From the sequence record SRR22947725_2340: a stretch of DNA of 35,719 nucleotides. One strand, given 5' to 3'. Numbering within the stretch: the first letter of the stretch is position 1; the number at the start of each line of letters is the position of its first letter. The translations under genes were made by a program, and so were the position numbers. Of the stretch, positions 8,527 to 28,779 are shown one piece after another. The notes under the pieces are model-generated. The model had not been told where the DNA came from and searched no databases. It worked only from the letters and a program-made list of their open reading frames with translations.

Positions 8527-9928
<1,402 letters not shown>

Positions 9929-9932
<4 letters not shown>

Positions 9933-11248: not shown

Positions 11249-11283
11249 GAAATAAAGAATGATTCCGAAAAAGAGAAAGTCAA
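11249..11283 (-). promoter_or_regulatory. Candidate leaderless promoter for the AraC gene
   Basis: Minus strand: TTGACT (11283-11278), 16 nt, CATTCT, 7 nt, then ATG at 11248. Confidence 0.5.
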
Positions 11284-11288
11284 CGACT

Positions 11289-11400: not shown

Positions 11401-11416
11401 TTAATCTAGTTAGCTT

Positions 11417-14400
11417 ATGAAATACCCATTCAATACCATTAAAGTTATTTTATTCTACACCACGCTAATTCTATTTACCTGTGTAAGTGTAAGCCTGACC
11501 GCGGCTAAAAAAGCAACCCCTGAGGAGATTCAGAAAATTACCGAAGCTATTCCCGCCACTATCCAATCTGCAAAGAAATACAAGGTTTTGGTTTTCTCCA
11601 AAGCGTTTACTTATTACCACAGCTCCATCGCTGTAGCAAAAGAGATGGCCCGACAAATGGGTGAAAAAACCGGTCTCTTTGAAGCTGATTTCACAGATGA
11701 CCCCAAGGATCTCAGTGCTGAGAACCTGAAAAATTACGACACTGTCTACTTGAATAATTCAACCAGTATTGAAAGAGGCCTGACCACTGAAAAAATGCGG
11801 AAGGATTTTATTGAATATGTAAGAAACGGCGGTGGTTTGGTTGCTATTCATGCGGCCACGGATGGCGGATGGCCCGAATATACTGATATGGTGGGAGGAA
11901 ATTTCAATGGGCATCCATGGGGGCATCAAGGCACTTACTGTATCTGCAATGAGGATCCAAAGCATCCCATTGTGAATGGAATCTTCGATGGTAAACAGAG
12001 CTTTAATCTCAATGATGAGTTGTATCAATACAAAGACTTCGATCGAAAAAAAGTGAGGGTATTACTTTCTGTCGATATGTCGAAATTTGAAAATCATCGG
12101 GGTGGACGAAAGAGGGAGGACAATGACTACGCAATGGCCTGGGTCAAAGAATTTGGTAAGGGTCGAGTCTTTGTATCCAGTCCGGGTCACAATCATCACA
12201 TCTATTGGAACAAGGATATCCTTAAGATGTGGTATCAGGGTTTTCGATTTGTTCTCGGGGAACTTGATGCGGAGACTGAATCTATCCAAAAGCCAAGTTA
12301 TGCCCTACCGCCTAAAGAAGGAGAACAGGCCCCCATCGTTCGTTTCAAAACCCCGGAAGAGAGCCAGGAATCGTTCAAGGTCCAACCGGGATATTCCCTT
12401 GAGCTCGTAGCGGACAATCCCATGGTCACCGAACCAACCGTCTGTGTATGGGATGGAAATGGGAGAATGTATGTGGCCGAGTGGCGCACCTACATGCAGG
12501 ACATAAATGGTACCGGTACTAATGATCCGGTCAGCCAGGTCGTTCGTCTTGAGGACAAAAATGGGGATGGGGTTATGGATCACAAAACCATCTTCGCAAA
12601 AGACCTGCTCCTCCCGCGAATGATCCTGCCCCTGCTCGATTCTGTTCTTATCGCGGAGTCCAACACCAATGATATTTTTGAATACTTCGACCGTGATAAT
12701 GACGGAGTCGCTGAGGAGAAAAAGATTTGGTTCGAGGGTGGAAAACGCGGTGGTAATGTCGAACACCAACCCTCAGGATTAATTTGGAGTATGGACAATT
12801 GGCTCTACCTGACATACAGCGACTACCGACTTCGTTTGCATAATGGTAAAGTAATTAAGGGCGAAACCAAGGGAAACCGGGGCCAATGGGGATTGACTCA
12901 GGATAATGCCGGAAAAGTCATGTATGTGGATGCCGGTGCCGGCATTGGACCCGTCCATCCACTATTTCCAAATATTTACACAAAATGGCACCCCAAATGG
13001 GTTATGGCGGAAGGTTTCAGGGAGGTCTTTGCCATTGATAACATTGCGGATTCGCAGGGCGGATTTGGTAGCATGCGGGCCAATAACTCTGCCAAGAGTT
13101 TCACCGCAACCTGTGGACAGGCCATCTTCCGGGGGGATCGTTTGCCCAAGGATTTAATTGGTAATTTATTCTTTCATGAACCAGTTGGACGCCTGACCCG
13201 GCGGGCAAAAATCAAAACGGACTCCATGGGTCGGCGCGTGCTTCATAATGCTTATATAGAAGACGAATTTGTAACCAGTTCGGACGCCAATTTCAGACCG
13301 GTTAATTCGGCAACTGGACCGGACGGTACTCTCTATATCGTCGATATGCACCGCGGAGTGGTACAGGAATCTGCCTGGGTTCCGAAGGGTTCCTTCATTC
13401 ACTCCTCCATTAAGCACTATGGACTCGATCAAAATGTACAACGCGGACGAATTTATCGGGTCCGTCACTCTGGCTTCACACCCGGACCGCGTCCCAACAT
13501 GCTCAACGAAACATCCAGTGAACTGGTAAGCCATCTTTCCCACCCGAACGGATGGTGGAGGGATGAGGCCCAGAAATTAATCATTGTCAAGGGAGACCAG
13601 ACTGTGCTTCCCGCACTGCGCCAACTGGTGAAAAACTCTTTAAACCCACTGGCCCGACTGCATGCTCTCTGGACAATAGAGGGATTAAATGCAATTGACT
13701 TGGATTTTCTTAAAACCGTTTATCAGGATAATGATCCGACAATTCGGGCGGCAGCCATTCGGATGACTGAACCATTCTTTCATCAAGAAATAAGTACCAT
13801 TTCCGCCCTTCAATCTTTGGTTAGTGATCCACATCACGATGTTGCTATTCAACTTTTACTCTCTGCCTCTACCAAAGTTACACCTGAAACTCGGGCACTG
13901 GCTGGTTCCGTTTTGGCAGAAAATCCATCCAATACATACCTCAAGGAAATTGATGATGAATTGAATAAGGATTATTTTGCGGAAGTGGCACGGCAAAAAG
14001 AATTAGCCCAGTTAGAGGCGGAAGAAGTGGCCTTACTCAATGCAGGCAAAAAACATTTCGAAGCACTTTGTGCCACCTGCCATGCCCCGGATGGAACTGG
14101 AGTCAAGACTCCAGACGGCAAAATGAAAATGGCTCCCTCTTTCGTTAACAATCCCACCGTGATCGGCTCCAAAGATGTACTTGCAAAAGTCGCTCTCCAA
14201 GGAATTTCAGGACCTTTACGCGGAAAATCTTATATGGGTGGGTTCATGATGCCCTTGAAGACAAACGACGATCAATACATCGCTTCCGTGTTAACTTACA
14301 TACGCAACAGCTTTGGTAATAAAGCAGGAATGATTAAAACGGAGGAGGTTGCACAAGCTCGTGAGGAAACCGCGAGTATGACTCAGGCCTACACGGAGGC

Positions 14401-15259
14401 CTCTCTCCGTGAAATTCTGCTCAATTCCGGGAGCGAAATCAAACTTTGGAAACTTTCGGCAAGCCATGGACAAAAGCATCTGCAATTCCTCCAGGATAAG
14501 GATGAAAAGACGACCTTTGCAACCAAGGCGGCCTTAAAAGTAGGCACTTGGATCGAGGCCGACTTCCCTCATCAGAGGAATGTATTCAAAATCATTCTCA
14601 CTGCCAAAGGTGGGGATTACCCGGGTATGTTAAAAGTGGAAACATCCGAGAACGGAGATTCCTGGGTTACAGTCGCAGATCAGGTTAAGGGATCCCAGGT
14701 TACTACGATTCCATTCGACATGGTGGTGGCTAAAAAAGTTCGGATCACCAGCCTGGAGGAAAAAAATAGTTGGTGGCAATTGTACAAACTCGAAATAATT
14801 GGTCCGGGCATGGGTGATGTTGATCAGTACAAACCTTCCAACCGTCATTACCTCCAACTTAGTGACGCAAAAAAAGTCCAAGTTGGCTGGAGCACCGCTA
14901 AACAGAATCGATCTGTGACAGGAGGAGAGCTAAAAGTGGCAGGCCAAAAGTTTACCCATGGTATAGGCACTCATGCACACAGCGAAATCACCTATGATCT
15001 GAATGGAAAAGGGTATCGACGATTTTATAGCATGGTGGGACACAATGACGGTGGACGGGATACCTACCTGACTTTTGAGGTTCATGTGGACAACAAAAAA
15101 GTTTTTGACAGTGGAAATATGACAAAAGGAGAACCTGCCAAGGCATTGGATATTTCCGTTCAAGGAGCAAACGAACTCAAGTTGGTAGTTACCAATGGTC
15201 AGGATGGGAAACCAGAAGGTGACCACGCGGACTGGGGCTATGCTTTCCTTGTGAAATGA
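11417..15259 (+). CDS. Multidomain secreted protein: ThuA-like + PVC-type dehydrogenase propeller + HEAT + cytochrome c + F5/8C (CBM32-like) + NPCBM/NEW2 (CBM51-like)
   Basis: ThuA motifs KVLVFSKAFTYYHSSI, GGGLVAIHAATD, DELY and GKGRVFVSSPGH. Propeller motifs WDGNGRMYVAEWRTYM and FRPVN..GPDGTLYIVDMHRG. Heme motif CATCH with distal MMP. Discoidin-like segment KVETSENGDSWVTV. NPCBM motifs GIGTHAHSEITYDL and GDHADWG. Confidence 0.85.
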   Translation: MKYPFNTIKVILFYTTLILFTCVSVSLTAAKKATPEEIQKITEAIPATIQSAKKYKVLVFSKAFTYYHSSIAVAKEMARQMGEKTGLFEADFTDDPKDLSAENLKNYDTVYLNNSTSIERGLTTEKMRKDFIEYVRNGGGLVAIHAATDGGWPEYTDMVGGNFNGHPWGHQGTYCICNEDPKHPIVNGIFDGKQSFNLNDELYQYKDFDRKKVRVLLSVDMSKFENHRGGRKREDNDYAMAWVKEFGKGRVFVSSPGHNHHIYWNKDILKMWYQGFRFVLGELDAETESIQKPSYALPPKEGEQAPIVRFKTPEESQESFKVQPGYSLELVADNPMVTEPTVCVWDGNGRMYVAEWRTYMQDINGTGTNDPVSQVVRLEDKNGDGVMDHKTIFAKDLLLPRMILPLLDSVLIAESNTNDIFEYFDRDNDGVAEEKKIWFEGGKRGGNVEHQPSGLIWSMDNWLYLTYSDYRLRLHNGKVIKGETKGNRGQWGLTQDNAGKVMYVDAGAGIGPVHPLFPNIYTKWHPKWVMAEGFREVFAIDNIADSQGGFGSMRANNSAKSFTATCGQAIFRGDRLPKDLIGNLFFHEPVGRLTRRAKIKTDSMGRRVLHNAYIEDEFVTSSDANFRPVNSATGPDGTLYIVDMHRGVVQESAWVPKGSFIHSSIKHYGLDQNVQRGRIYRVRHSGFTPGPRPNMLNETSSELVSHLSHPNGWWRDEAQKLIIVKGDQTVLPALRQLVKNSLNPLARLHALWTIEGLNAIDLDFLKTVYQDNDPTIRAAAIRMTEPFFHQEISTISALQSLVSDPHHDVAIQLLLSASTKVTPETRALAGSVLAENPSNTYLKEIDDELNKDYFAEVARQKELAQLEAEEVALLNAGKKHFEALCATCHAPDGTGVKTPDGKMKMAPSFVNNPTVIGSKDVLAKVALQGISGPLRGKSYMGGFMMPLKTNDDQYIASVLTYIRNSFGNKAGMIKTEEVAQAREETASMTQAYTEASLREILLNSGSEIKLWKLSASHGQKHLQFLQDKDEKTTFATKAALKVGTWIEADFPHQRNVFKIILTAKGGDYPGMLKVETSENGDSWVTVADQVKGSQVTTIPFDMVVAKKVRITSLEEKNSWWQLYKLEIIGPGMGDVDQYKPSNRHYLQLSDAKKVQVGWSTAKQNRSVTGGELKVAGQKFTHGIGTHAHSEITYDLNGKGYRRFYSMVGHNDGGRDTYLTFEVHVDNKKVFDSGNMTKGEPAKALDISVQGANELKLVVTNGQDGKPEGDHADWGYAFLVK

Positions 15260-15263
15260 TTTG

Positions 15264-16304
15264 ATGACAGACCTTGCCCAACGCAGCCCTCTTAATCCGT
15301 TAATTACTCCTTCTCAGGTTAACTCATACCATCCTGATACGGAAGTAGAATGCCTATTGAATCCGGGTGTTTTTCAATTCCGGGAAATGACCTGGTTAGT
15401 TGTCCGGGTCGCTGAACGGCCTGAACAAAAAGAAGGAGAAATTTCGTTTCCGATCATTAAAAACGGATCAGTAGAAATTGTATCCTTTCGATTAGATGAT
15501 CCGTTATTGGATGTAAGTGACCCAAGGGAACCCCGTTATAATGGTGTAACCTACTTATCAACCCTTTCACACTTAAGATTATTCAACAGCGAAGACGGGG
15601 TTCATTTTAAAGATGCGGGTTGGCCTAACTTATTTGGAAAAGGTGATTTGGAAAGCTACGGAATAGAAGACTGTCGGGTTGCTTCGATGAAGGATGGTTC
15701 TTTTCTACTTACTTATACCGCCACTTCCGAAAATGGATACGGTGTTGGGTTGCGCCGAACCTACGATTGGAAAACACATGAAGAATTTGGGATGATACTT
15801 CCCCCTGCCAACAAAGACTGTGCAATCTTCGAAAAGAAAATTAAGGGGGAATATTTTTGTTTTCACAGACCAAGCGGAGTGGGCCTAGGCGGTCACTATA
15901 TTTGGCTGGCTTCCTCTCCGGATTTATTCCATTGGGGAAACCATACATGCCTCGCAAAAACTCGCGAAGGGATGTGGGATTGTTCTCGAATTGGTGCGGG
16001 AGCGGCCCCGATAAAGACCGAGCGGGGATGGTTGGCAATTTATCATGGGGCAGACCATCAAAACAGATACTGTCTGGGAGCTATATTACTTGATAAAAAC
16101 AATCCAAGTAAAGTAGTAGGAAGGAGCAAAAAACCGATTATGGAACCCACTGCCGACTACGAAAAAGAAGGCTTTTTTGGAAATGTTGTCTTTACAAATG
16201 GCCACATTGTGAAAGACGATCAACTTATTCTTTATTATGGTGCTTCCGACAGTGTAATTTGTTCCGCCGAATTTTCCATTTCGGAAATACTTAAAACCTT
16301 ATGA
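15264..16304 (+). CDS. GH130 glycoside phosphorylase, Lin0857-like (putative beta-1,2-mannobiose/oligomannoside phosphorylase)
   Basis: NPLITP, LVVRVAERP, SFRLDD..DPR, YLSTLSHLR, YGIEDCRV, NKD, HRPS, WLASSPDL, PIKTERGWLAIYHGA and EP.ADYEKEGFFGNVVF match my recollection of Listeria Lin0857 throughout. No signal peptide. TTG at 15261 is an alternative start. Confidence 0.85.
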   Translation: MTDLAQRSPLNPLITPSQVNSYHPDTEVECLLNPGVFQFREMTWLVVRVAERPEQKEGEISFPIIKNGSVEIVSFRLDDPLLDVSDPREPRYNGVTYLSTLSHLRLFNSEDGVHFKDAGWPNLFGKGDLESYGIEDCRVASMKDGSFLLTYTATSENGYGVGLRRTYDWKTHEEFGMILPPANKDCAIFEKKIKGEYFCFHRPSGVGLGGHYIWLASSPDLFHWGNHTCLAKTREGMWDCSRIGAGAAPIKTERGWLAIYHGADHQNRYCLGAILLDKNNPSKVVGRSKKPIMEPTADYEKEGFFGNVVFTNGHIVKDDQLILYYGASDSVICSAEFSISEILKTL

Positions 16305-17167
16305 GATCCGAAAAATTAATTTGGGAAGGCTTCCCCGATCATGACATATATAATATTACTGCCCCTTTTCATTGGATGGGACGAGATGTAATCGCTGGAC
16401 GGGTTGAAAAAAGAACCGAAGAACTCTCTCAAATTGTATTATTCGAAAAATCTGCCAACGGTTGGACTCCAGTTCCCAATGCACCGGTTTTTTCTGGACT
16501 GCAGGATCCTTGTGTTACCCGGATAAATGGAAAGCTATTGCTTGGCGGGGTACGCTTCCCCGTGATCATCGGAGATGATCAAAATGCCTGGCAGATGGAA
16601 TTCTTCATCGAGAATGAGGGAGGCAAGTTTGAAAAGGTTCTGACCGGACCACCCAAGATGAAAGATGTTCGCTTCCTTCAACTTCCGGATCACCGAATAT
16701 TTGTGTTAACCAGACCACAAGGAGAGAAAGGGGGTCGGGGGAAAATTGGATTTTGCATTGTGGATTCCCTCGCAGACGCAACCCACGATGTAATTGATCA
16801 GGCTCCCCTTTTTGATCACTGTGTGGAAAAATTATGGGTCGGGGCAAATGAGGCTCATAATCTAAAAAACGGCAGGATTGGTGTACTGGGTCACATTGCC
16901 GAATTTGACGAAGATCAAAATCGACACTACTACGCGATGGCATTCGCAATTGATCCAGAAGAAGGAACCTCTACTCTGCCTGAAATTATTGCCAAGCGTT
17001 GTGATTTTCCGAAGGGAGAATCTAAGCGCGAAGATCTTGAGGATGTCATCTTCTCCGGAGGGATCCAACGGCAAGAAAATGGAAAAGCCCTTCTCTTTGC
17101 AGGTCTAAGTGATGCGGAAGCAGGTTTCATCGAAATACCCGATCCTTTCCTTCAATACGAAAACTGA
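16301..17167 (+). CDS. DUF1861 / GT108 family protein (Leishmania MTP-like beta-1,2-mannosyltransferase/phosphorylase homolog)
   Basis: DIYNITAPF, IAGRVE, LQDP, GP.KMKDVR, TRPQG..GGRGKIGF, GANE, IGVLGHIA, HYYAMAF and DVIFSGG are characteristic of DUF1861. ATGA overlap with the GH130 gene. Confidence 0.82.
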   Translation: MRSEKLIWEGFPDHDIYNITAPFHWMGRDVIAGRVEKRTEELSQIVLFEKSANGWTPVPNAPVFSGLQDPCVTRINGKLLLGGVRFPVIIGDDQNAWQMEFFIENEGGKFEKVLTGPPKMKDVRFLQLPDHRIFVLTRPQGEKGGRGKIGFCIVDSLADATHDVIDQAPLFDHCVEKLWVGANEAHNLKNGRIGVLGHIAEFDEDQNRHYYAMAFAIDPEEGTSTLPEIIAKRCDFPKGESKREDLEDVIFSGGIQRQENGKALLFAGLSDAEAGFIEIPDPFLQYEN

Positions 17168-17168
17168 G

Positions 17169-19142
17169 GTGCGCCTGCTTCTGCTCATAAGTTTATTTTT
17201 CGGTTGCTTGGGCCAAGCTCAAAACTTGCCAAGTATTGCGAAATTCCCAGACCTTCCTCCTGATTATTCTTTACGGGATTGGAAAAAAACTGCCCTTGAT
17301 TACGATGCTTTGGTCTTTGATCAGAACCGGACCGGAAAATTCCTTCCCCTTATTTGGATGGACGATTCGAAAAAGGTAAACCCAGCCAATGGTTTTGGCC
17401 TTCCCACTTATGTTGGGGATTCACGGCAAAACCCGAAAACCGCTTTACATGAAGCAATCACCGGTATGGCATCGGTCCTGAATGGCACCTTACTTGGAGA
17501 AGACAAGTCAACGTATATTCCCATGCTTGCCACCCATTTTCACCAAAAGAATGGAATTGGACTGTACCTTAATCAGGTGGGCACAAGAGGGGATAGTTTC
17601 TGGTATGATCTTTTGCCCAGTCTATTATTCGTTCATCTTTACCATCACTACCCACAAACATCGATTCTAGCAGAACAGTTCCATTCAACTATTAGTACAT
17701 GGGAGCAGATTGCCGGGCAACTGGGTAACAATTTTGATCATACTGGATATGATTTTCACACGAAACTACCGGTGAACCGCGGATGGTCGGAAGCAGATAT
17801 CGTGGCAGGTCTGGCTTGCTTACAATATATTGGATGGAAGAAAACGCGGAACCAATCCTTTTTGGAGATGAGTAAAAAATGCCTTAATTGGATGGACCGG
17901 AGAAAAACCAATCCATACTACGAATGTCTTGCCCCCTATGGTGCTTATGTATCCGCACTTTATAATGCAGAACGGAACGGTACTCACCAGACTGCAAAAT
18001 TCATTGAATGGGTCCTCGCTGGAGATAATCCTAGAAAATGGGGTGCGATGTTTGAATCATGGAACGGAATCCCGGTTCATGGTCTAATTGGCAGTGTATA
18101 TCCAAATTATGAATATGCCTTTGCCATGAACACTTTCCAGGCAGTTGGCATCATGGCACCCATTGCACGCTATGAAGACAAGTTTGCCCGGGATTTAGCC
18201 AAGTGGATTCTAAATGTTTCTTCCAACAGTCGATACTTTTACCCAGATGCATGGTCCCCTGAACAGCAGACCAGTTACAAATGGGCCCAAGAACATGATC
18301 CCACTTTTTGCATTCCCTACGAAGGAATTAGAAAACAGGGAACCATTCGAAATTATCCCGAAGTAGACCGCATGAAATTGGGCACCCTCAAATTGGGAGA
18401 ATCAACCAACCCAGATAAAGACATGCTCCTGACCGCAAACCATGAGGGTGAAGTTCACTACGAGGGAGAGATTAACTTACCCACCGGAATGGTTCATTCC
18501 CTGATTGCAGTGATCAGGCATAGAAAAATCGAGAACGAAATTCAAGTCTTCATCCAAGGAAACCCCACCAATCAGATCAATTATCTCGCCCAAAAATCGG
18601 ATCACCAAAAGCTTTCTATCAAGGGGAAAGGAATGATTGAATTGGTGGTGAGGGCAAAAGGACTACAACCCGGTGAAGTAATTCAAGTCCAGGATCTGGT
18701 GGTGGAAACCAGGTTACCCAATCCGCCCCATGTCGGTGGAGATGCTACTATTCATGGGTGGGGTGAGACTGACCTCGGACTCTATGGTGGATCCAATGTC
18801 GGCTACCTTGCCGCATTGATTGAACCGACCAATATTGAAGGGATTCTTGCGATTGACCCAGTGGCAACCGATATCATAAACCCAGACGCATTTCCCACTC
18901 GTCTATTCTATAATCCATTCCCTAAAGCAAAAACCATTCATTGGAATTGTGGAAAACATCCGGTACGGGTGTACGACGCACTTAGCAATAAAACCATTTA
19001 TTCATCCGTTCACGGTTCACAGAACTTTGAAATTCCTGCCAAACAAGCAATCATGCTTGTCTCCACCCCAGCGGATAAACCCTTGGAAAGAATCAAAGGT
19101 CACCTAATTTGCGAGAATATCGTGGTCGACTTCCAACTCTAA
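17169..19142 (+). CDS. Uncharacterised secreted protein, probable carbohydrate-active enzyme
   Basis: GTG at 17169, 1 nt after the upstream stop, gives a signal peptide (MRLLLLISLFFGCLGQA|Q). Aromatic- and acid-rich blocks RDWK, HEAI, FWYDLLP, EAD, YYE, YAFAMNT and PYEG. I cannot name a family with confidence. Confidence 0.75.
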   Translation: MRLLLLISLFFGCLGQAQNLPSIAKFPDLPPDYSLRDWKKTALDYDALVFDQNRTGKFLPLIWMDDSKKVNPANGFGLPTYVGDSRQNPKTALHEAITGMASVLNGTLLGEDKSTYIPMLATHFHQKNGIGLYLNQVGTRGDSFWYDLLPSLLFVHLYHHYPQTSILAEQFHSTISTWEQIAGQLGNNFDHTGYDFHTKLPVNRGWSEADIVAGLACLQYIGWKKTRNQSFLEMSKKCLNWMDRRKTNPYYECLAPYGAYVSALYNAERNGTHQTAKFIEWVLAGDNPRKWGAMFESWNGIPVHGLIGSVYPNYEYAFAMNTFQAVGIMAPIARYEDKFARDLAKWILNVSSNSRYFYPDAWSPEQQTSYKWAQEHDPTFCIPYEGIRKQGTIRNYPEVDRMKLGTLKLGESTNPDKDMLLTANHEGEVHYEGEINLPTGMVHSLIAVIRHRKIENEIQVFIQGNPTNQINYLAQKSDHQKLSIKGKGMIELVVRAKGLQPGEVIQVQDLVVETRLPNPPHVGGDATIHGWGETDLGLYGGSNVGYLAALIEPTNIEGILAIDPVATDIINPDAFPTRLFYNPFPKAKTIHWNCGKHPVRVYDALSNKTIYSSVHGSQNFEIPAKQAIMLVSTPADKPLERIKGHLICENIVVDFQL

Positions 19143-19146
19143 CTCT

Positions 19147-20874
19147 ATGCACTGGATCGACTACAGTATCATTTTTCTCTACATCGCATTTGCGATTGGG
19201 GTAGGTATTTTCTTCTCTGGTAAAGCATCCAAAAATTCAGAATCCTTTTTTCTAGGCGGACGTTCTCTTCCCTGGTGGGCAATTTGTCTATCCATGATTG
19301 CCACTAGTTTCGCATCGGATACTCCAATCTGGGTGACGGAGGTGACCAGAAAAGACGGTCTCGAAAGAATGTGGTGGGTCATTGTTTCAGTCCTCCCCCT
19401 GATCATCGGTATTTTTCTTTTTTCCAGGCTATGGAGAAGAACGAACCTGATTACGGATGCGGAATTTTTTGAATTTCGATACGAGGGGAAATCCGCGGCA
19501 ATCCTGCGTGGGGTCCGGGCGTGTTACGGAGGAATCTTACAAAATCTATTAACCATTGGTTGGGTCACTTTTGGAATGAGTACGGTGATTGAAGTGCTCA
19601 CTCCTTTTGACCAGACACAGGCAATCGTAGTGCTTATGGCCGTGGCCCTTTTTTACGCCACCTTTTCCGGATTCTATGGAGTCGTGACCACCGATGTAGT
19701 TCAATTCTTCATCACTATGGGAAGCATGCTTGCCCTTGCCTGTATTGCCGTAAGCCAAGCAGGTGGACTGGACACTATTCTTACCGGGATTCGATCGATG
19801 CCTGAATACGGTGAAAAAACCCTCTCCCTCTTCCCCGATTTTTCAACCTTCAATTCAGATGTGCTCAAAATGCTGGTGATTTTCACCCTGGTCTGGTGGA
19901 GCGATGCCAACGGATATAATATGCAAAGAATGTCTGCCTGTCGAAATGAGAAAGACGCCATTCGGGCAACCTTATTTTACTCCATTTTCCAATCATGTCG
20001 CCCCTGGCTTTGGGTAGTTGTGGGGCTAGTTTCCATTGTGGCCTTCCCTGCCCTATCCGATCATAGCAAGGCGTACCCGATGGTAATCAATGAATATCTC
20101 GGGATTGGGCTGAAGGGACTTCTGATTACCGCCTTCCTCGCCGCTTTCATGTCCACTATAGACACGCACCTCAATTGGGGAGCTTCTTTCCTAACCATTG
20201 ATTTATACAAACGGTTTTACCGGAAAGATGCGACTGAAGCTCATTACGTGCGGGCTTCCAAATTATTTATGGTTTTACTTATGATCGCAGGTGCAATCAT
20301 TGCCACCCAAGTCGAATCGGTCAGCGGGGTAATGGAATGGCTCGCGTATCTGATGATCCCCGGAGGTATTGCCTCAGTCCTTCGATGGTTTTGGTGGCGG
20401 ATTAATGCGTTCACCGAGTTAACCGCTTTGGTAGGAGGATTACTTGGAGGCATTCTTTTTAAACTACTCGATTCCGACTGGATTGTTTGGGGAAAGCCAT
20501 GGGGCAGCTTCGCCTGGGAATTCAAAGTGGCTCTTTTAGTCAGTGTAATCTTCCCACTCAGTATTCTTGTTACTTTTCTGACCCAACCGGTATCCAAAGA
20601 AAAACTGATTACATTTTACCGCCAGGTTCGACCGGGTGGTGCATGGGGGCCAATCCGTAAAGCAGTGGGTAAAGTTTCTGGATCCACCCTCACCCTATCC
20701 AGTTGGCTCGATGTCATAGGAGGGGTCATGCTCTGCTATGGATTATCTCTGGCGATCGCCTATGCAATTCTTCTTCACTTTCCTGCCTGTGGTATCTGTT
20801 CCGCCATTTCATTCACGGGTGCTCTTCTGGTATGGAGATGGTATAAAAAAGAAGTGATACGCCTCACTGAATAA
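19147..20874 (+). CDS. Sodium:solute symporter (SSS/SLC5 family)
   Basis: About 13 hydrophobic segments. FFLGGRSLPWW, SMIATSFASDTP, FFEFRY, GVVTTDVVQF, MQR and AAFMST. Confidence 0.93.
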   Translation: MHWIDYSIIFLYIAFAIGVGIFFSGKASKNSESFFLGGRSLPWWAICLSMIATSFASDTPIWVTEVTRKDGLERMWWVIVSVLPLIIGIFLFSRLWRRTNLITDAEFFEFRYEGKSAAILRGVRACYGGILQNLLTIGWVTFGMSTVIEVLTPFDQTQAIVVLMAVALFYATFSGFYGVVTTDVVQFFITMGSMLALACIAVSQAGGLDTILTGIRSMPEYGEKTLSLFPDFSTFNSDVLKMLVIFTLVWWSDANGYNMQRMSACRNEKDAIRATLFYSIFQSCRPWLWVVVGLVSIVAFPALSDHSKAYPMVINEYLGIGLKGLLITAFLAAFMSTIDTHLNWGASFLTIDLYKRFYRKDATEAHYVRASKLFMVLLMIAGAIIATQVESVSGVMEWLAYLMIPGGIASVLRWFWWRINAFTELTALVGGLLGGILFKLLDSDWIVWGKPWGSFAWEFKVALLVSVIFPLSILVTFLTQPVSKEKLITFYRQVRPGGAWGPIRKAVGKVSGSTLTLSSWLDVIGGVMLCYGLSLAIAYAILLHFPACGICSAISFTGALLVWRWYKKEVIRLTE

Positions 20875-20875
20875 A

Positions 20876-22438
20876 ATGAAACTCCTGAAATCGGTCTATC
20901 GCTCCAGCTCTTTTTTGATCTTCCTTTTCATTTGGTTGGAGTCCACCGCGGCCCCAAAACCCAACATTCTTCTCATCACCGCCGACGATCTGGGATGGGA
21001 TTCATTGGGTTGCATGGGGAACCCCCTTGAAGGATTGTCCCCAAACTTGGATCGTCTTGCCTCCGAAGGCTTACTGATCAAGCACGGCTATGTGGCAACC
21101 CCCATTTGCGGGCCTTCCCGCCAAGCTCTTTACACCGGAAGGTTTCCACAGAGCACTGGACTTATGGGACACGGAGTCCAACCTCCTAATTGGTGGAAAT
21201 TAAATAGGAGCAATGCAGGAACTCAATCAATCACATCCCTCCTGTTACAGAATGGATACCTCAGTGGAATGATCGGAAAACACGGATCCGAATGGTGTCA
21301 GTTCAGTCTTCCCCCACACGGGCGAAACGATCAGACCGGAATGGGACGAAATCCGGAAAAATACTTCGCCTACACCCGTCAGTTCCTTGCCCGGGCAAAA
21401 GAAGAAAAGAAGCCTTTCTTTCTCGCCGCCAATGCCCATGACCCCCATCGCTATTGGGCAAGGCATCCAGATGAAACATCTAAATGGATCAATCAAATGA
21501 TGGGAGATGAACCATGGGAACGCCTGCTCAATGGCAAACCTTACCCCGATCCAAAGTCCAGATTTATACCCGAGCAATGCCCTGTCCCACCCGCCTATCC
21601 CAGGGTACCAAAATTAAAAGAATCTCTGGCTAGTTACTATGACTCCGTCAATCGAATGGACCAAGTTGTCGGAGGGGTGCTACAAGCACTAGAAGAAAGC
21701 GGACTGGCGAAAAATACCCTCGTGCTCTTTCTCTCCGATCATGGGATGGCGTGGGATTTAAGCAAGTGGTCCCTTTATCCATCCGGGGTCCGCACCCCAA
21801 TCCTTATTCGTTGGCCCGCACAAGTGAAAGCCGGACAAATTGATTCACAATCCATTGTTTCAGTTGTTGATATTGCTCCCACCATTGCGGAACTTTGTGG
21901 ATTATCCCCCATGACTAAAACCGATGGAAAATCTTTTTCTTCTTTATTGAAAAAACGACAGTCAAAATGGAAACGCTCCAGTGCATTCAGTTGTTTTAAT
22001 TATATGAACAATAGCCCTGAAATCGATAATTCGATTGATTCCTTTCCTTCTGATTTACCTGAAAAATTTGATCAATACCGACCATCTCGCTCTTTAAACA
22101 ACAAAGATTTCAGTTATGTATGGAATGGGTGGGCTGATGGCAATCGATCCTTACCGAGAACCATGCTCGGAGAATTTCACTGGATGATAACAAAACTGGC
22201 AGGGAACAAGACTAATTCGACCTACGGAGATTATATTGAAAGGAAAAATTTTATTGAATTTAGAACGCGGGAAGAATTGTACGATTTATCCAAGGATCCT
22301 GGCTGCCGTACCAATCTATCCAAACATGATAATCATCAAACTACCTTGAAGGATTTTAGGAATCGCATGAAAGAGGTTTTGCAAAAAACCAACGATCATG
22401 AATTAGATAACTACCTAACCTTCTTAAATAAAAAATGA
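20876..22438 (+). CDS. Formylglycine-dependent (S1) sulfatase, secreted
   Basis: Signal peptide. PNILLITADDLG, CGPSRQALYTG (CxPxR), GKH, DPH, SDHG and EELYDL..DP. Confidence 0.93.
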   Translation: MKLLKSVYRSSSFLIFLFIWLESTAAPKPNILLITADDLGWDSLGCMGNPLEGLSPNLDRLASEGLLIKHGYVATPICGPSRQALYTGRFPQSTGLMGHGVQPPNWWKLNRSNAGTQSITSLLLQNGYLSGMIGKHGSEWCQFSLPPHGRNDQTGMGRNPEKYFAYTRQFLARAKEEKKPFFLAANAHDPHRYWARHPDETSKWINQMMGDEPWERLLNGKPYPDPKSRFIPEQCPVPPAYPRVPKLKESLASYYDSVNRMDQVVGGVLQALEESGLAKNTLVLFLSDHGMAWDLSKWSLYPSGVRTPILIRWPAQVKAGQIDSQSIVSVVDIAPTIAELCGLSPMTKTDGKSFSSLLKKRQSKWKRSSAFSCFNYMNNSPEIDNSIDSFPSDLPEKFDQYRPSRSLNNKDFSYVWNGWADGNRSLPRTMLGEFHWMITKLAGNKTNSTYGDYIERKNFIEFRTREELYDLSKDPGCRTNLSKHDNHQTTLKDFRNRMKEVLQKTNDHELDNYLTFLNKK

Positions 22439-23856
22439 TTTCTACCTTATCGACTCGTTTCATAAATTTATTTCCCTTACTTGGATTTGCCCTTTTGTGC
22501 CAAATTCTTGTGGCTGAACAAACCAAGCCCAACTTTATCATTATCATCGGGGACGATGTGGGATGGGATGCCTTCGGATGTACAGGGATGAAAGAGGCAA
22601 GAACTCCGGCGATCGATCAGTTGGCAAACGAATCAACCATGATGACTCGTTTCTACTGCAGCGTTTCCCAATGTGCTCCCCTTCGGGCCGAGCTTTACAC
22701 TGGTCTATTCCCAATGAATAACGGCGTGCTCGCCAATGCGAGGAAAGAAAAACGTACAGGGATTAAAAATATCGCCGATCATTTGAATCCGCTTGGGTAC
22801 AAGGTTGGACTGTCTGGAAAGAAACACTTTGGCTTAGGCACTGCCAAGATCGATGAGATCCCCGGTTTTCCCTCCAATGCGAATGGATCGAACCAGATCC
22901 ATTCATTCGATGGAGTCGAACATTATATTTCCCAGGCAAAGAAGGAAGGAAACTCGTTTTGCGTGGTTATTGGGGCGACCCACGCACACCATCCATGGGA
23001 TCATGGAGAAGAATCAAATTACCCTGTGGGAAAAGTAAATTTACGTCCCCACTACATTGACACACCGGCCGCCCGGCAGGCGGTTGCCAAACATGCAGCC
23101 GAAGTCGAAGTTCTCGATCAACAAGTTCGCGAGACCCGCGAACTGATGAAGAAGATGGACTTGGGAAAGGACACGATTCTGATTTTCCTGAGCGAGCAGG
23201 GAATAGCCATGCCCCGGGGAAAATGGTCCCCCTACGAACACGGATCACGAGCCATTTGCCTGGCCCAGTGGAAGGGAAAAATCCTCTCACGCAAGACCGA
23301 TGCCCTCGCCATGTACTGCGACATCGTTCCCACATTGATCGACTTTGCAGGGGGGGGGAATCCCGGTCTGGACGGTAAATCACTCAGGAAACTATGGACC
23401 AGCAAGAAGATCAACAACCACCGTAAAGAAATCCTGATCTCCAATGTCCACCCATTCTGGCAAAAGGCCATTGTCACCGACACCTACAAATTAATCTGGA
23501 CCGGGCATCCGGAAAGAGAGCATATCTTCAGTAACTTCACATCTAAAAGTAAATTTTTCGCCAAACCTTGGATAGAATGGATAGAGAAGGCCCAGAATAA
23601 TCAAAGAGTGGCCCGCAAAGTTGATCATATCCTTCAGCCCAAAGCCTTCGAGCTGTATAATATCGTGAACGATCCATACGAAATCAAAGACCTTTCCAAT
23701 CTTCCCGAAAACAAGAAAAGAATCGTCACGCTCAAGGCGAAGCTCAAGAAATTAATGACCGACTGCGGGGAATCAACCACCCCTCCATTAGAAACAGCAC
23801 CCAAAACTAAGAAAGATAAGGGCAAGCGACGCAAAATCCAAAAAACCTCAAAGTAA
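22435..23856 (+). CDS. Formylglycine-dependent (S1) sulfatase, secreted
   Basis: Signal peptide. PNFIIIIGDD, CAPLRAELYTG, GKKH, SEQG and ELYNIVNDPYE. Lys/Arg-rich tail. ATGA overlap with the upstream gene. Confidence 0.9.
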   Translation: MISTLSTRFINLFPLLGFALLCQILVAEQTKPNFIIIIGDDVGWDAFGCTGMKEARTPAIDQLANESTMMTRFYCSVSQCAPLRAELYTGLFPMNNGVLANARKEKRTGIKNIADHLNPLGYKVGLSGKKHFGLGTAKIDEIPGFPSNANGSNQIHSFDGVEHYISQAKKEGNSFCVVIGATHAHHPWDHGEESNYPVGKVNLRPHYIDTPAARQAVAKHAAEVEVLDQQVRETRELMKKMDLGKDTILIFLSEQGIAMPRGKWSPYEHGSRAICLAQWKGKILSRKTDALAMYCDIVPTLIDFAGGGNPGLDGKSLRKLWTSKKINNHRKEILISNVHPFWQKAIVTDTYKLIWTGHPEREHIFSNFTSKSKFFAKPWIEWIEKAQNNQRVARKVDHILQPKAFELYNIVNDPYEIKDLSNLPENKKRIVTLKAKLKKLMTDCGESTTPPLETAPKTKKDKGKRRKIQKTSK

Positions 23857-25713
23857 ATGACCATGACTACAAAGACCCGCCTTCTAAACAAAATTGCACT
23901 TCTGGCATTTTTTGTATCTTGCACGCTCCCCTTAACCGGAAAAGTTATAAAGCCCAACATTCTCTGGATTACCAGCGAGGATAACAGTATTGAATGGATA
24001 AGTTGCTACGGAAGCAAGAATGCCAAAACTCCCAACATTGACCAGTTGGCGAAGGAAGGGTTCCGTTACCTGTACTGTTTCGATAATGGTGCGGTCTGTG
24101 CCCCTACCCGTTCCTCTTGGATTACCGGGATGCATTCGATTTCCAATGGAACCCAGCCGATGCGCAGCGGATTCGAGATTCCCGCCACGATCAGCTTTTA
24201 CAACGAGCTCCTGCAAAAAGCGGGCTACTTCACAAGTAATTGTTCGAAAACCGACTACAACCTCAGAGCACCCAGTGGTCGCAACCCCAAGAACTTCTGG
24301 AACTATTCCGGAAAGGAATATGCAGGAACTTGGAAACTGCGTGAAAAAGGCCAACCCTTCTTCACAGTATACAATATTGGAGAGAGTCATGAATCCAGAG
24401 CCTTTGGCGATCATAAGGACGAGTCCATCGATCCAGAGGAAATGATCCTCGCTCCCTACCATCCGGATCTTCCCGAAATGCGCAATACTTACGCCAAATA
24501 TGCCAGTGCCATATCTAAAATGGATTCTTTAGTGGGGCAAGCGATCGAAAACCTCAAGCAGGACGGACTCTATGAAAATACAATCATTGTATACAACTCC
24601 GACCACGGTGGCGTGCTTGCCCGCAGTAAAAGATTCCTCTATTCCAGCGGAATCCATTGTCCCCTGATCGTGCGCATTCCAGAAAAAATGAAAGCCCTTT
24701 ACCCAAAAGGGAAAACTCCAGGATCCACCATGGATCGGATTGTAAGCTTCATCGATATGCCCAAGACCTGGGTCAGCCTGACCGGTGCTGAAATGACAGA
24801 TAATTTTCAGGGCCGGATCTTTCTTGGTCCAAATACAGAACCTGAATCCCAGTACCATTTCTCGTGGCGAGAGCGTGCGGACGAACGATTCGACAATGTC
24901 CGGGTGATGCGTGATAAACAATTCGCTTATCATAAAAACTATGCTCCCTTTGCCCCCAACGGACAGTACCTTGCGTACATGCACAATATGAAGGCAACGG
25001 GTGCCTGGGAACGCCATCATTTGGCCGGGAAAACTAACGCGGTGACCGGTCGTTTCTTCGAACCCCGCCCATCCGAGGAATTCTACGATAACTTTAAAGA
25101 CTTTCACAATATTGACAACCAAATCGATGACCCATTGCACCAGACTAAGATTAAAGAACTCAAGAAAGAACTCCGCCGGCAACAACTCAAGCACTTTGAT
25201 TCGGGTCTCATGCCCGAAGAAATGAGGAACCGGATCATAAAGGAAAAGAATACCACGGTATATGCCTTTGTTCGGGACCCCAAGCTCTACCCATTAGCAC
25301 AATATCTCGACTACTCCGACCTTGCCCTGACCCGTAAAAAGAAAAACCTCAAGACCTTCATCAAGGGACTTGCGGACGAGGATCCGGTCAAACGCTACTG
25401 GTCAGTGATTGGCTTACTGCTCCTCGAAAAACAGGCCAAATCTGCGATTTCAGAACTGAAAAAAGTGCTCGGGGATCGCGATGAAATTCCAGCCTTTGCT
25501 GCCTGGGCAATTTATAAAGCCGGGGAAAAAACATTCGCCGAGAAATGGATGCTTGAGGCCATTACCCAAAATCCGGGAAACAAGACACTGGCCAATATCT
25601 TTGACTGGATGGGTACGGCCAGCCACTCCTTGCTCGCTAAAATTCCCAGCGATAAGCTCCCCCAAAAAGGTCTACTCAAAGATGTGATCAAACGATCAGG
25701 AGTACAAAATTAA
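23857..25713 (+). CDS. Formylglycine-dependent (S1) sulfatase with C-terminal HEAT-like helices
   Basis: Signal peptide. PNILWITSEDN, CAPTRSSWITG, KTDYN, HES and SDHG. C-terminal L.DEDPVKRYW HEAT-like repeat. Confidence 0.92.
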   Translation: MTMTTKTRLLNKIALLAFFVSCTLPLTGKVIKPNILWITSEDNSIEWISCYGSKNAKTPNIDQLAKEGFRYLYCFDNGAVCAPTRSSWITGMHSISNGTQPMRSGFEIPATISFYNELLQKAGYFTSNCSKTDYNLRAPSGRNPKNFWNYSGKEYAGTWKLREKGQPFFTVYNIGESHESRAFGDHKDESIDPEEMILAPYHPDLPEMRNTYAKYASAISKMDSLVGQAIENLKQDGLYENTIIVYNSDHGGVLARSKRFLYSSGIHCPLIVRIPEKMKALYPKGKTPGSTMDRIVSFIDMPKTWVSLTGAEMTDNFQGRIFLGPNTEPESQYHFSWRERADERFDNVRVMRDKQFAYHKNYAPFAPNGQYLAYMHNMKATGAWERHHLAGKTNAVTGRFFEPRPSEEFYDNFKDFHNIDNQIDDPLHQTKIKELKKELRRQQLKHFDSGLMPEEMRNRIIKEKNTTVYAFVRDPKLYPLAQYLDYSDLALTRKKKNLKTFIKGLADEDPVKRYWSVIGLLLLEKQAKSAISELKKVLGDRDEIPAFAAWAIYKAGEKTFAEKWMLEAITQNPGNKTLANIFDWMGTASHSLLAKIPSDKLPQKGLLKDVIKRSGVQN

Positions 25714-28763: not shown

Positions 28764-28779
28764 ATCTTATCTGGTAGTA

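Follow-up and report, generated by a model that had tools for sequence, protein, structure and literature searches.

A locus for the uptake and phosphorolysis of β-1,2-mannosides, with the product of its fourth gene (G4) as the extracytoplasmic glycanase, is our preferred reading of an eight-gene operon in a marine Verrucomicrobium, and we give it a probability of about 0.6. The operon lies within a 35,719-nt stretch of DNA from sequence record SRR22947725_2340, referred to here as the window. G4 is the most informative of the eight genes, and its family shows a linkage to β-1,2-mannoside enzymes that spans phyla; the preliminary description of this DNA listed it as an unknown secreted protein and missed that link.

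The ORF listing and direct reading of the junctions showed eight tightly packed plus-strand genes (G1 to G8) at positions 11417 to 25713, divergent from an AraC-family gene, with all junctions being gaps of 0 to 4 nt or ATGA overlaps. The preliminary description had reported this arrangement, and Pfam bore out the domain content that it listed: a CBM-bearing redox protein, a GH130, a DUF1861 protein, the unknown secreted protein, an SSS transporter, and three sulfatases. The AraC-family regulator (10334 to 11308, minus strand) consists of a cupin/AraC_binding sensor domain (Pfam AraC_binding, 9.6e-11) and HTH_18 (1.7e-21). The 108-nt divergent region (11309 to 11416) is presumed to hold the promoter and operator; a consensus scan reported no sigma-70-like site in it. 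The G1/G2 gap is 1 nt if G2 starts at TTG 15261 and 4 nt if it starts at ATG 15264, G2/G3 and G6/G7 overlap at ATGA, and the remaining gaps are 1 nt (G3/G4), 4 nt (G4/G5), 1 nt (G5/G6), and 0 nt (G7/G8). The G3/G4 value depends on GTG 17169 as the G4 start, which gives a signal-peptide-like N-terminus, M-RLLLLISLFFGC...; the mechanical ORF, from GTG 17109, would overlap G3 by 59 nt, and the short form is the one used in an NCBI-annotated Opitutales homologue, P0122 (657 aa). The junctions in the window are too short for an additional promoter to fit between the genes, and terminator-like sites were not in excess within the cluster in a pattern scan (16, versus 23.3 ± 5.6 in shuffles). From this packing, co-transcription of G6 to G8 with the upstream core is likely. 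Crude hydropathy, used rather than SignalP, gave signal-peptide-like hydrophobic N-termini for G1, G4, G6, G7, and G8 and none for G2 and G3. The nearest related loci belong to an "uncultured Opitutae bacterium" (L001, 99%) and an "Opitutales bacterium" (L002, 96%); the source is therefore a Verrucomicrobiota/Opitutales genome, and the earlier label of a PVC bacterium was right.

G2 (15261 to 16304; Pfam Glyco_hydro_130, 3.6e-49) is predicted to be a cytoplasmic GH130_4 β-1,2-mannobiose/triose phosphorylase. Its best solved relatives in a PDB sequence search were Uhgb_MS (9EQQ, E value of 5.3e-150 over residues 4 to 346), a GH130_4 enzyme from an uncultured human-gut member of the Bacteroidota (also 9ERG and 9ERH), and Lin0857 from Listeria innocua (5B0P, 8.6e-85), both of which are β-1,2-mannobiose/triose phosphorylases (PMC12814180). 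Next came Teth514-type β-1,2 phosphorylases (9FJ8, 1.6e-49; 7FIP, 7.9e-46), with β-1,4 enzymes at 1e-27 or weaker, so that the proposed β-1,2 type held: G2 groups with the β-1,2 phosphorylases and not with β-1,4 or β-1,3 enzymes. G2 aligns end to end with the two best relatives and retains Uhgb_MS residues R88, E136, D137, K184, R202, and R242, among which E136 and K184 are β-1,2 determinants and R88, R202, and R242 bind phosphate (PMC12814180); it differs from them in its marine verrucomicrobial host and at nucleotide-contact residues P206 and N211, which are V and H in G2. The three NCBIfam matches of G2 are all to β-1,2-mannoside families, at scores under the equivalog cut-offs (379 bits versus 550; 213 versus 450). 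G3 (16301 to 17167; Pfam DUF1861, 8.4e-97), also cytoplasmic, matches the GT108 enzymes MTP1 to MTP7 of Leishmania (6Q4W to 6Q50, 2B4W) at 2e-41, as expected from the earlier suggestion that it is a GT108 (2.2e-41 for MTP4, 6Q50). It shares their DUF1861 fold family and retains D83, K133, D134, R150, H208, and D285 (MTP4 numbering); these residues mark it as a GT108 whose active site is intact. MTP4 E82 is replaced by Q in all 121 aligned bacterial sequences, G3 and its 120 close relatives, and the MTPs differ further in serving a eukaryotic intracellular reserve metabolism. GT108 enzymes synthesize or phosphorolyse β-1,2-mannan (PMC10913872; PMC12814180); G3 may be a β-1,2-mannosyltransferase and/or a β-1,2-oligomannan phosphorylase, and sequence cannot say which (PMC10913872). 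Phosphorolysis of β-1,2-mannosides in the cytoplasm is very probable.

G4 (17169 to 19142; 657 aa) is secreted, possibly as a lipoprotein (LFFGC), and had no match in Pfam, NCBIfam, or among PDB sequences. Its family is large, lacks a Pfam or NCBIfam model, and seems to be uncharacterized so far, though widespread. An AlphaFold2 model (pLDDT 93.5, pTM 0.91) has a helical barrel followed by β-sandwich domains, and the predicted fold is a six-hairpin-like barrel with such domains. Foldseek gave only weak matches (best E value of 8.7e-6, query-normalized TM-scores of at most 0.34), to six-hairpin enzymes of a generic kind: arabinofuranosidases of GH127/GH146, GH9, and the epimerase-like 3GT5 of the AGE family (target-normalized TM-score of 0.51). 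Neither sequence searches nor Foldseek detected a relative with known function. Residues E208, E252, E385, and D525 are invariant in the family, along with many aromatics. The nucleophile of GH127/GH146 is a cysteine; the family alignment has no conserved cysteine, and G4 thus has no counterpart of that nucleophile. Signal-peptide-like N-termini occur in 58 of 80 family proteins, and the long members bear SLH, F5/8 type C, Fn3, LamG, PKD, T9SS, and PATR modules; overall, G4 has the appearance of a carbohydrate-active enzyme that works outside the cell.

We compared 79 G4-family loci from species-representative genomes. GH130 is present in 47 of them, at most 1.5 kb from a G4-family gene in 37, and DUF1861 in 19; each of the 15 phylum labels (14 named phyla and the unlabelled group) includes GH130-bearing loci. 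Four of the 50 neighbouring GH130 genes were compared with the PDB. That of L072 matched the Teth514_1788-type 1,2-β-oligomannan phosphorylase (9e-133), that of L044, from Mucilaginibacter, the β-1,2-mannosidases BT3780 and BACOVA_03624 (1e-172; PDB codes as in PMC4599007), and that of L032 Lin0857 (7e-158); that of L068 had distant matches only, the best still being β-1,2 enzymes (4e-32). Identity to G2 is 45% or more for another 24 of the 50, whereas 20 of the 50 are less than 45% identical to any of the three reference types; the genes of L032 and L068, compared above, belong to these 20. Copies of G5 (19147 to 20874; Pfam SSF, 1e-31; TIGR00813, 7e-44), a sodium:solute symporter presumed to import oligosaccharides, are found at orthologue level (50% identity or more) in 17 loci, some of them from Planctomycetota and Lentisphaerota, and tblastn found AraC-like genes in 11 (22 to 100% identity covering at least half of the query). 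In Flavobacterium, L040 has the layout of a canonical polysaccharide utilization locus, in the order HTCS, SusC, SusD, G4-family, GH130, MFS, G4-family, and GH13, and no secreted protein in it other than the two of the G4 family is a candidate glycanase. Planctomycetota loci show the recurring order G4-family, G4-family, GH130, and in L051 and L059 an ORF of ∼430 aa without a Pfam match at 1e-8 follows GH130. What is conserved is a core of G4, GH130, and a transporter, to which GT108 may be added.

G4 adjoins four β-1,2-specific GH130 lineages, as well as GT108, in other phyla and for that reason is the strongest candidate for the enzyme, otherwise missing, that would cleave β-1,2-mannan outside the cytoplasm; that it is a glycanase acting on β-1,2-mannosidic chains has, in our estimate, slightly better than even odds. 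It might instead cleave another linkage, such as the backbone of a heteroglycan with β-1,2-mannose side chains, or be a lyase, an epimerase, or a binding protein merely travelling with GH130. The generic nature of its fold matches would suit such a role, as would the 32 loci in which GH130 was not seen, 12 of them with at least 7 kb on both sides, which show that the family is not exclusively tied to GH130. We consider this unlikely, given the association with four separate GH130 lineages, the want of any other candidate glycanase in L040, L051, and L059, and the missing cysteine nucleophile.

The sulfatases are secreted S1 enzymes, each with a C-x-P-x-R motif: G6, a formylglycine sulfatase (20876 to 22438; Pfam Sulfatase, 5.3e-45; CGPSR), G7 (22435 to 23856; 4.1e-28; CAPLR), and G8 (23857 to 25713; 4e-29; CAPTR), which is S1_8-like and has a C-terminal extension. 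Their mutual identity is only 26 to 28%, so they represent three lineages rather than tandem copies. The best PDB matches were SGSH (4MHX, 1.7e-34) and S1_8A (9BB9, 1.7e-32) for G6 and an arylsulfatase (7SNJ, 1.8e-24) for G7; G8 matched 9BBA, "S1_8C sulfatase" (5.9e-70), S1_8A (9BB9, 3.5e-63), and S1_8B (2.1e-44). Characterized S1_8 enzymes are galactose-2-sulfate sulfohydrolases (bioRxiv 10.1101/2025.01.09.632246), a specificity that we counted against a tie between sulfatases and mannosides. A G6-like sulfatase (60 to 98% identity) directly follows G5 in 8 of the 79 loci (L001 to L005, L007, L008, and L011), a few nucleotides away in four; in the remaining four, where the N-terminus of G6 is unaligned, the alignment begins 30 to 90 nt past G5. 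In L005 and L007, no G7 was detected between the G6 and G8 copies. All eight loci lie within one clade of the G4 tree, for which one change of state suffices, and the upstream PSD1, DUF1501, and NDT genes keep their synteny in L001, L002, and L004 as well, so that shared ancestry alone could explain the conservation. The preliminary interpretation stands for the β-1,2 GH130, the GT108, and the topology; co-conservation of the sulfatases with the GH130/DUF1861 core does not hold at large.

G1 (11417 to 15259; 1280 aa) is a secreted redox protein with carbohydrate-binding modules. Its Pfam domains are, in order, ThuA-like, DUF7133 (a PVC-type dehydrogenase-like region), HEAT repeats, cytochrome c (heme motif CATCH), F5/8 type C, and NPCBM, the last two of which we take to be CBM32 and CBM51; NCBIfam assigns it to TIGR02604, "PVC-type heme-binding CxxCH protein" (2.6e-44). 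The binding modules belong to families annotated, by their Pfam names, as galactose binding, which we counted against the mannoside reading. G1-like genes occur in 7 of the 79 loci, all from Verrucomicrobiota near the window. G1 and the three sulfatases are accessory genes belonging to a single marine clade of Opitutales.

These distributions bear on whether the operon joins two modules that have no common substrate. The mannoside core (G2 to G5) and a desulfation/oxidation set (G1 and G6 to G8), brought together in one marine clade, would then share a transcript while the set acts on another sulfated glycan, such as a sulfated galactan or fucoidan-type polymer, or while both act on different parts of a mixed algal exudate. 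Of the 70 more distant G4 loci, only 5 have any sulfatase within the sequence fetched, against 65 without, and the tree implies a single gain; G8 has galactose-2-sulfatases as its nearest characterized relatives, G1 bears F5/8 type C and NPCBM modules, and the same core carries different accessories in other lineages, namely SASA/GDSL esterases and ∼940-aa FAD_oxidored proteins in L017, L019, and L021. Against this stand the close or overlapping junctions in the window, the G5-G6 order maintained in eight species, and L009, where a G6-like copy (53% identity), now upstream of AraC, still adjoins the rearranged cluster; with just one AraC regulator and one transporter, a common inducer and a single imported product would be expected. 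We regard the two-module explanation as rather doubtful. That the sulfatases act on the same glycan as the mannoside enzymes is itself a tentative proposal, with the odds somewhat against it, and a sulfated β-1,2-mannan as substrate is speculative. In β-1,2-mannan, O-2 is occupied by the linkage. The sulfated mannans described in the literature that we found are α-1,3 linked, not β-1,2 (PMC13063451). The three sulfatases hint at an unknown sulfated marine glycan.

For the β-1,2-mannoside reading we infer an AraC-controlled catabolic operon whose substrate would be a glycan containing β-1,2-linked mannose. Outside the cytoplasm, G4 would cleave β-1,2-mannosidic chains to oligosaccharides, and G6 to G8 with G1 would strip or modify decorations of the same or an accompanying glycan; the oligosaccharides would enter through G5, and in the cytoplasm longer chains would be handled by G3 while β-1,2-mannobiose and -triose are phosphorolysed by G2. 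The flow put forward earlier, from secreted enzymes through a Na+/solute symporter to cytoplasmic phosphorylases, fits the predicted topology. G2 and G3 could alternatively serve the turnover of an internal β-1,2-mannan reserve, or GDP-mannose/mannoside supply, as a bacterial counterpart of Leishmania mannogen with GT108 as the synthase and GH130 as the mobilizing phosphorylase. Strict GDP-Man transferases exist among GT108 enzymes, transferase activity has been inferred for the ancestral bacterial GT108 (PMC10913872), GH130_4 enzymes show weak transferase activity (PMC12814180), and a GDP-mannose salvage role was proposed for a Thermoanaerobacter cluster (PMC4264767). A reserve function is nevertheless highly improbable: the same operon holds the secreted G4, a symporter, secreted sulfatases, and a sugar-type AraC regulator, the same enzymes accompany SusC/SusD or ABC importers in other phyla, and the window has no GDP-mannose pathway gene.

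Literature searches turned up no description of such a locus, in agreement with the preliminary description. The Thermoanaerobacter sp. cluster follows a common logic, the import of β-1,2-mannooligosaccharides and their conversion to Man1P by two cytoplasmic enzymes with possibly differing chain-length preferences (PMC4264767); it has two GH130_6 enzymes, an ABC transporter, GH5, Man1P guanylyltransferase, and GT4, whereas the window has GH130_4 and GT108, an SSS symporter, G4, sulfatases, and the redox protein. Chiku et al. state that no β-1,2-oligomannan source was known for that Thermoanaerobacter (PMC4264767). The yeast-mannan loci of Bacteroides (GH130_3 BT3780 and BACOVA_03624) target β-1,2-mannose caps (PMC4599007), and a close BT3780 homologue adjoins the G4-family gene in Mucilaginibacter L044; those Bacteroides loci rely on α-mannan enzymes and periplasmic hydrolysis, whereas the window would use cytoplasmic phosphorolysis and has no α-mannanase or α-mannosidase family. 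The Polaribacter locus for diatom C6-sulfated α-1,3-mannan (GH195, GH92, S1_51, S1_11) is likewise marine and combines mannan-cleaving enzymes with sulfatases (PMC13063451), but differs in linkage and in its glycosidase and sulfatase subfamilies, and lacks both GH130 and GT108 (PMC13063451 contains the term GH130 0 times). The λ-carrageenan locus of Pseudoalteromonas distincta U2A (S1_8A/B/C, S1_15) resembles the window in the matches of G8 to S1_8C, S1_8A, and S1_8B; its enzymes act on galactose-2-sulfate in a galactan, and the window has no GH150, GH110, or GH2 partner.

G1 recalls the ThuAB/3-ketoglycoside route in joining a ThuA domain to cytochrome c; ThuAB has been described as a periplasmic, cytochrome-c-dependent 3-ketoglycoside dehydrogenase (PMC8121099). 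The window has no ThuB (Gfo/Idh/MocA) partner, however, and G1 has a PVC-type architecture, its ThuA domain being fused also to DUF7133, HEAT repeats, and two binding modules. A neighbouring protein encoded at 1140 to 4733 has the same DUF7133/cytochrome c core together with a DUF1080 domain, a likeness to the DUF1080 3-keto-disaccharide hydrolase.

The gene content of the operon is best explained by catabolism of a glycan containing β-1,2-mannose, a reading built from sequence comparisons. In the ORF listing of the window, eight genes lie on the plus strand at 11417–25713: a ThuA/DUF7133/cytochrome c/binding-module protein (G1), a GH130 enzyme (G2), a DUF1861/GT108 protein (G3), an uncharacterised secreted protein (G4), a sodium:solute symporter (G5), and three sulfatases (G6, G7, and G8). 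The preliminary description had them as co-oriented and tightly packed, and the junctions, read directly, bear this out, each being a gap of 0 to 4 nt or an ATGA overlap; the AraC-family gene (10334–11308) is divergent as described, with a spacer of 108 nt, and Pfam confirmed the domain content that had been listed. G2 may start at TTG 15261 or ATG 15264, both of which are possible. The 1-nt gap between G3 and G4 holds only with a G4 start at GTG 17169. With this start the N-terminus looks like a signal peptide or that of a lipoprotein, and the protein agrees with an Opitutales homologue as modelled by NCBI (657 aa); an ORF taken mechanically from 17109 would overlap the DUF1861 gene by 59 nt. 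Hydrophobic N-termini are found on G1, G4, and G6 to G8, but not on G2 or G3. Within the cluster, a consensus scan for terminators and promoters gave fewer sites than shuffled sequence, with no enrichment of terminator-like sites and no useful signal. G5 carries the SSF signature (PF00474, 1e-31) and matches TIGR00813 at 7.2e-44, its 150.5 bits falling under the 184-bit cut-off. The nearest genomes belong to Opitutales/Opitutae, Verrucomicrobiota (99% and 96%).

G2 is a member of the five-bladed propeller family GH130 (Pfam PF04041, 3.6e-49) and aligns over its full length with Uhgb_MS (9EQQ) and Lin0857 (5B0P). A PDB sequence search gave E values of 5.3e-150 for Uhgb_MS and 8.6e-85 for Lin0857, followed by the Teth514-type β-1,2 phosphorylases (1e-46 to 1e-49) and the β-1,4 enzymes (1e-27 or weaker). 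Grouping with β-1,4 or β-1,3 enzymes had been named beforehand as the observation that would count against a β-1,2 assignment; with Uhgb_MS and Lin0857 as its best relatives, G2 lies outside those clades. In the alignment (Uhgb_MS numbering), R88, R202, and R242 are all kept, as are the catalytic Asp adjoining E136 and the +1-subsite pair E136/K184 (motifs GIEDCRV and NKDCA), and V and H take the place of the variable nucleotide contacts P206 and N211. Ladeveze et al. (PMC12814180) describe the three arginines as phosphate contacts and E136/K184 as β-1,2 determinants. Cytoplasmic phosphorylases are expected to have no signal peptide, according to PMC7660257, and the N-terminus of G2 agrees. 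All three NCBIfam matches of G2 are β-1,2-mannoside families, and all fall below the equivalog cut-offs (379.1 bits against 550 and 213 against 450; NF050092, NF052550); by these scores G2 is a relative of the families but not an NCBI equivalog. We predict that G2 is a β-1,2-mannobiose/triose phosphorylase of GH130 subfamily 4.

G3 is a DUF1861 protein (PF08950, 8.4e-97) that matches MTP4, the Leishmania GT108 enzyme (6Q50), at 2.2e-41. Six of the seven MTP4 active-site residues are kept (D83, K133, D134, R150, H208, and D285); the seventh, E82, is replaced by Q in G3, as it is in each of the 120 close bacterial relatives. Because the Arg/His position alone does not separate transferase from phosphorylase, as shown by Franceus et al. 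2024 (PMC10913872), the direction of the G3 reaction cannot be read from its sequence.

G4 matched no family in Pfam or NCBIfam, and its only neighbours in the ESM Atlas were unnamed clusters, all "hypothetical protein." No relative was found among PDB sequences, the best match, a urea transporter (2e-4), being spurious. The family is nevertheless large: a profile of 45 homologues, searched against 1.84 billion representatives, retrieved 1143 clusters at the 50% identity level (E up to 1e-10), and scanning species-representative genomes gave 461 relatives. AlphaFold2 predicts, with high confidence (pLDDT 93.5, pTM 0.91), an N-terminal helical barrel (about residues 20–380) followed by β-sandwich domains. 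A Foldseek search of the full model against the PDB gave only weak matches (best E 8.7e-6) and no close fold relative. Among them were six-hairpin enzymes, namely GH127/GH146, GH9, and the AGE-like 3GT5; 3GT5 reached a TM-score of 0.51 normalised to the target, and GH127/GH146 gave Foldseek E values of about 1e-4 and TM-scores of 0.26–0.32 normalised to the query. The β-L-arabinofuranosidases of GH127/GH146 have a conserved cysteine nucleophile, and no cysteine is conserved among 45 members of the G4 family; on this ground, and with no PDB sequence match, assignment of G4 to GH127/GH146 was rejected. Residues E208, E252, E385, and D525 are invariant in the family, together with many aromatic residues. 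Signal-peptide-like N-termini are present in 58 of 80 members, a few paralogues being without one, and long members are fused to SLH, F5/8 type C, Fn3, LamG, PKD, T9SS, and PATR modules. Related loci from species-representative genomes, found with G4 as query, carry L numbers here; in L032 (13736–15373), and likewise in L043, L049, and L056, G4-family ORFs begin at a conserved M-P-x-L-P motif without a hydrophobic N-terminus, so there are cytoplasmic paralogues as well as secreted ones. These features fit a family of extracytoplasmic carbohydrate-active enzymes with some cytoplasmic members.

The best 80 of the 461 G4 matches yielded 79 loci, each flanked by as much as 10 kb either way, and these were searched with the window's proteins. 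GH130 was present in 47 of them, within 1.5 kb of the G4-family gene in 37, and GH130-bearing G4 loci occur under all 15 phylum labels (14 named phyla plus unlabelled). DUF1861 was found in 19 loci, a symporter at least 50% identical to G5 in 17, any sulfatase in 14, an AraC-like gene in 11, and a G1-like gene in 7. GH130 was not seen in the remaining 32, of which 12 had at least 7 kb on both sides. Between the DUF1861 and G4 hit lists, 7 contigs agreed in length, only a weak hint of co-occurrence.

Among the 50 neighbouring GH130 genes, 24 were at least 45% identical to G2 and 20 were below 45% to three reference types. Four of the 50 were compared with the PDB: that of Neomarinimicrobiota (L072) is Teth514_1788-like (9e-133), that of Paenibacillus (L032) is Lin0857-like (7e-158), and that of Mucilaginibacter (L044) resembles the β-1,2-mannosidases BT3780/BACOVA_03624 (1e-172), whose PDB codes are confirmed in Cuskin et al. 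2015 (PMC4599007); the Phycisphaeraceae gene (L068) is distant, its top matches also being β-1,2 enzymes (4e-32). G4-family genes thus adjoin four lineages specific for β-1,2-mannosides, as well as GT108. Pfam annotation of 19 loci gave the gene orders. In Flavobacterium (L040) it runs HTCS, SusC, SusD, G4-family, GH130, MFS, G4-family, GH13; Pfam found no domain of such a Bacteroidota-type SusC/SusD pair in the window. Two Planctomycetota loci (L051 and L059) have two G4-family genes, GH130, and then an ORF, about 430 aa long, for which Pfam gave nothing at 1e-8, and Paenibacillus L032 has LacI, DUF1861, GH130, an ABC importer, G4-family, PP2C, G4-family. No candidate glycanase other than the G4-family genes was found in L040, L051, or L059. 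The 32 loci without GH130 and the 20 GH130 genes below 45% identity count against the association.

In a Planctomycetales bin (L013, 9600–13800), G4 and the symporter are 52% and 70% identical to those of the window, GH130 is reduced to a 16% remnant, and G4 aligns as two overlapping pieces; the gene may be frameshifted or decaying, and it may have passed from one phylum to another. A contig labelled "Methanobacteriota archaeon" (L006, 1–8997) carries an Opitutales-type AraC-GH130-DUF1861-G4-symporter operon with 57–85% protein identity, and on the G4 tree it nests inside the clade of Opitutales; the contig is probably mis-binned.

G6, G7, and G8 each contain a PF00884 sulfatase domain, a signal-peptide-like N-terminus, and a C-x-P-x-R maturation motif (CGPSR, CAPLR, and CAPTR, respectively), and by family criteria they are S1 formylglycine-dependent sulfatases. 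They share only 26–28% identity with one another. The closest PDB relatives of G8 are S1_8C (5.9e-70), S1_8A, and S1_8B (down to 2.1e-44), so that G8 may be called S1_8-like, a label taken from PDB relatives; a preprint (bioRxiv 10.1101/2025.01.09.632246) describes the characterised S1_8 enzymes, which come from a λ-carrageenan locus, as galactose-2-sulfate sulfohydrolases.

Sulfatases directly follow the symporter in eight loci (L001–L005, L007, L008, and L011). The gap between G5 and G6 is a few nucleotides in four of these; in the remaining four the G6 alignment begins 30–90 nt past G5 and leaves out the N-terminus. In the G4 tree (IQ-TREE quick search, LG+G4, 80 rows), all eight form one clade, and the trait needs a single state change; L006 also falls in this clade, but its contig stops just past the symporter. 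Among the next relatives, L009 keeps AraC and G1 to G5 and has a G6-like sulfatase (53% identity) upstream of AraC, and L010 keeps G2 to G5 only, with an unrelated sulfatase on the opposite strand. Where G4 is less than 60% identical, 5 of 70 loci contain any sulfatase. Upstream of the operon, at 6151–10351 (+), lies a housekeeping-type run with a PSCyt2/PSD1 (DUF1549/DUF1553) and DUF1501 pair, typical of PVC genomes, and then a gene resembling those for nucleoside 2-deoxyribosyltransferases, with its end overlapping the 3′ end of AraC. This run is syntenic in L001, L002, and L004, so shared descent could explain much of the conservation of the sulfatase operon.

In G1 a ThuA domain is combined with a dehydrogenase-like region of the PVC type, a cytochrome c, and two binding modules. 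Its role may be to oxidise a glycoside, a reasonable guess since Liu et al. 2021 (PMC8121099) describe ThuAB as a periplasmic cytochrome-c-dependent 3-ketoglycoside dehydrogenase. The window also encodes, at 1140–4733 (−), a 1197-aa PVC-type heme-binding protein with DUF7133, HEAT, cytochrome c, and DUF1080, the last a 3-keto-disaccharide hydrolase domain; its architecture is a sibling of that of G1 with another end domain. Freshwater or soil Verrucomicrobiota and a Pontiellaceae bin (L017, 4380–9917; L019, 2137–9219; L021, 1628–5428) carry, beside G4, GH130, and DUF1861, a FAD_oxidored protein (PF12831; about 940 aa in L017 and L019, 477 aa in L021) and SASA or GDSL esterases, with no sulfatases; L019 and L021 also have an MFS_2 transporter. 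That a common core carries different accessories in different lineages fits a shared pathway supplemented, habitat by habitat, with enzymes for removing decorations.

In the proposed pathway, G4 would open a β-1,2-mannose chain outside the cytoplasm, G5 would import the oligosaccharides, and G3 and G2 would convert them to Man1P by phosphorolysis. Co-transcription of the sulfatases and G1 with this core is very probable, and therefore they probably serve the same foraging task. They may also act on the same polymer, for which the gene packing and the G6 linkage retained in L009 are arguments. Arguments against a simple sulfated β-1,2-mannan are the single origin of the sulfatases on the G4 tree, the galactose-type relatives of G8 and of the G1 modules, and the fact that O-2 is occupied in a β-1,2 chain. 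We know of no sulfated β-1,2-mannose glycan from marine eukaryotes that has been described chemically. We consider it improbable that G4 founds a new GH family and that the target is, at the same time, an undescribed sulfated mannose-containing marine glycan; were both so, the G4 family would be extracytoplasmic β-1,2-mannanases, the missing first step of a cross-phylum pathway, and the marine Opitutales version, with its three different sulfatases and a cytochrome-c-linked oxidoreductase bearing binding modules, would target a sulfated β-1,2-mannose glycan of marine eukaryotes. Two known polymers were considered as well. The sulfated mannan described from marine diatoms was rejected as substrate, being α-1,3 linked and degraded by other enzyme families (PMC13063451). 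For fucoidan side chains, a 2026 Nature paper includes a GH130 among nine enzymes tested; six had confirmed activity, no GH130 among them, and three had no detectable activity, which leaves the fucoidan link without support (PMC13668718).

Glycan utilisation operons based on phosphorylases are known as a kind, and what is new in this one is its parts. The open-access literature yielded no locus joining β-1,2-mannoside phosphorylases with sulfatases, in line with the preliminary description, and no description of the G4 family, though a recent family assignment may exist in CAZy or in subscription journals. Nor did it yield an endo-β-1,2-mannanase; papers on that activity or on β-1,2-mannooligosaccharide degradation dealt with α-1,2-mannanase, GH130/GT108, and Candida only. 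Within the literature found, no enzyme opening a β-1,2-mannan chain from outside is described, and no natural supply of substrate outside Candida and Leishmania; for Thermoanaerobacter, no β-1,2-oligomannan source was known according to Chiku et al. 2014 (PMC4264767). The G4 family offers a concrete and cheap test for the missing outside-cleavage step. The broad spread of the G4-GH130 module over soil, freshwater, gut, and marine phyla suggests that β-1,2-mannosides commonly serve as a carbon source in the environment. Should the marine sulfatase-bearing version indeed act on one glycan, it would point to an unrecognised sulfated mannose-containing polymer in ocean carbon cycling, and would supply enzymes to detect and dissect it.

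Downstream of the operon, after a 465-nt gap, the stretch 26178–29763 (+) encodes a secreted 861-aa protein with a weak DUF3604 match (4e-4) and then a PD40 β-propeller protein; L001 and L002 have retained the two. In a Hydrogenedentes locus (L047), AraC, GH130, and G4 are adjoined by a G9-like stretch (26% identity, 44% coverage). Genes for a SASA esterase, an MR_MLE enolase-superfamily protein, a DHDPS-family protein, a DAO-type FAD oxidoreductase, and a proline-racemase-family protein occupy 29854–35117 (−), a cluster that looks like hydroxyproline or sugar-acid catabolism.
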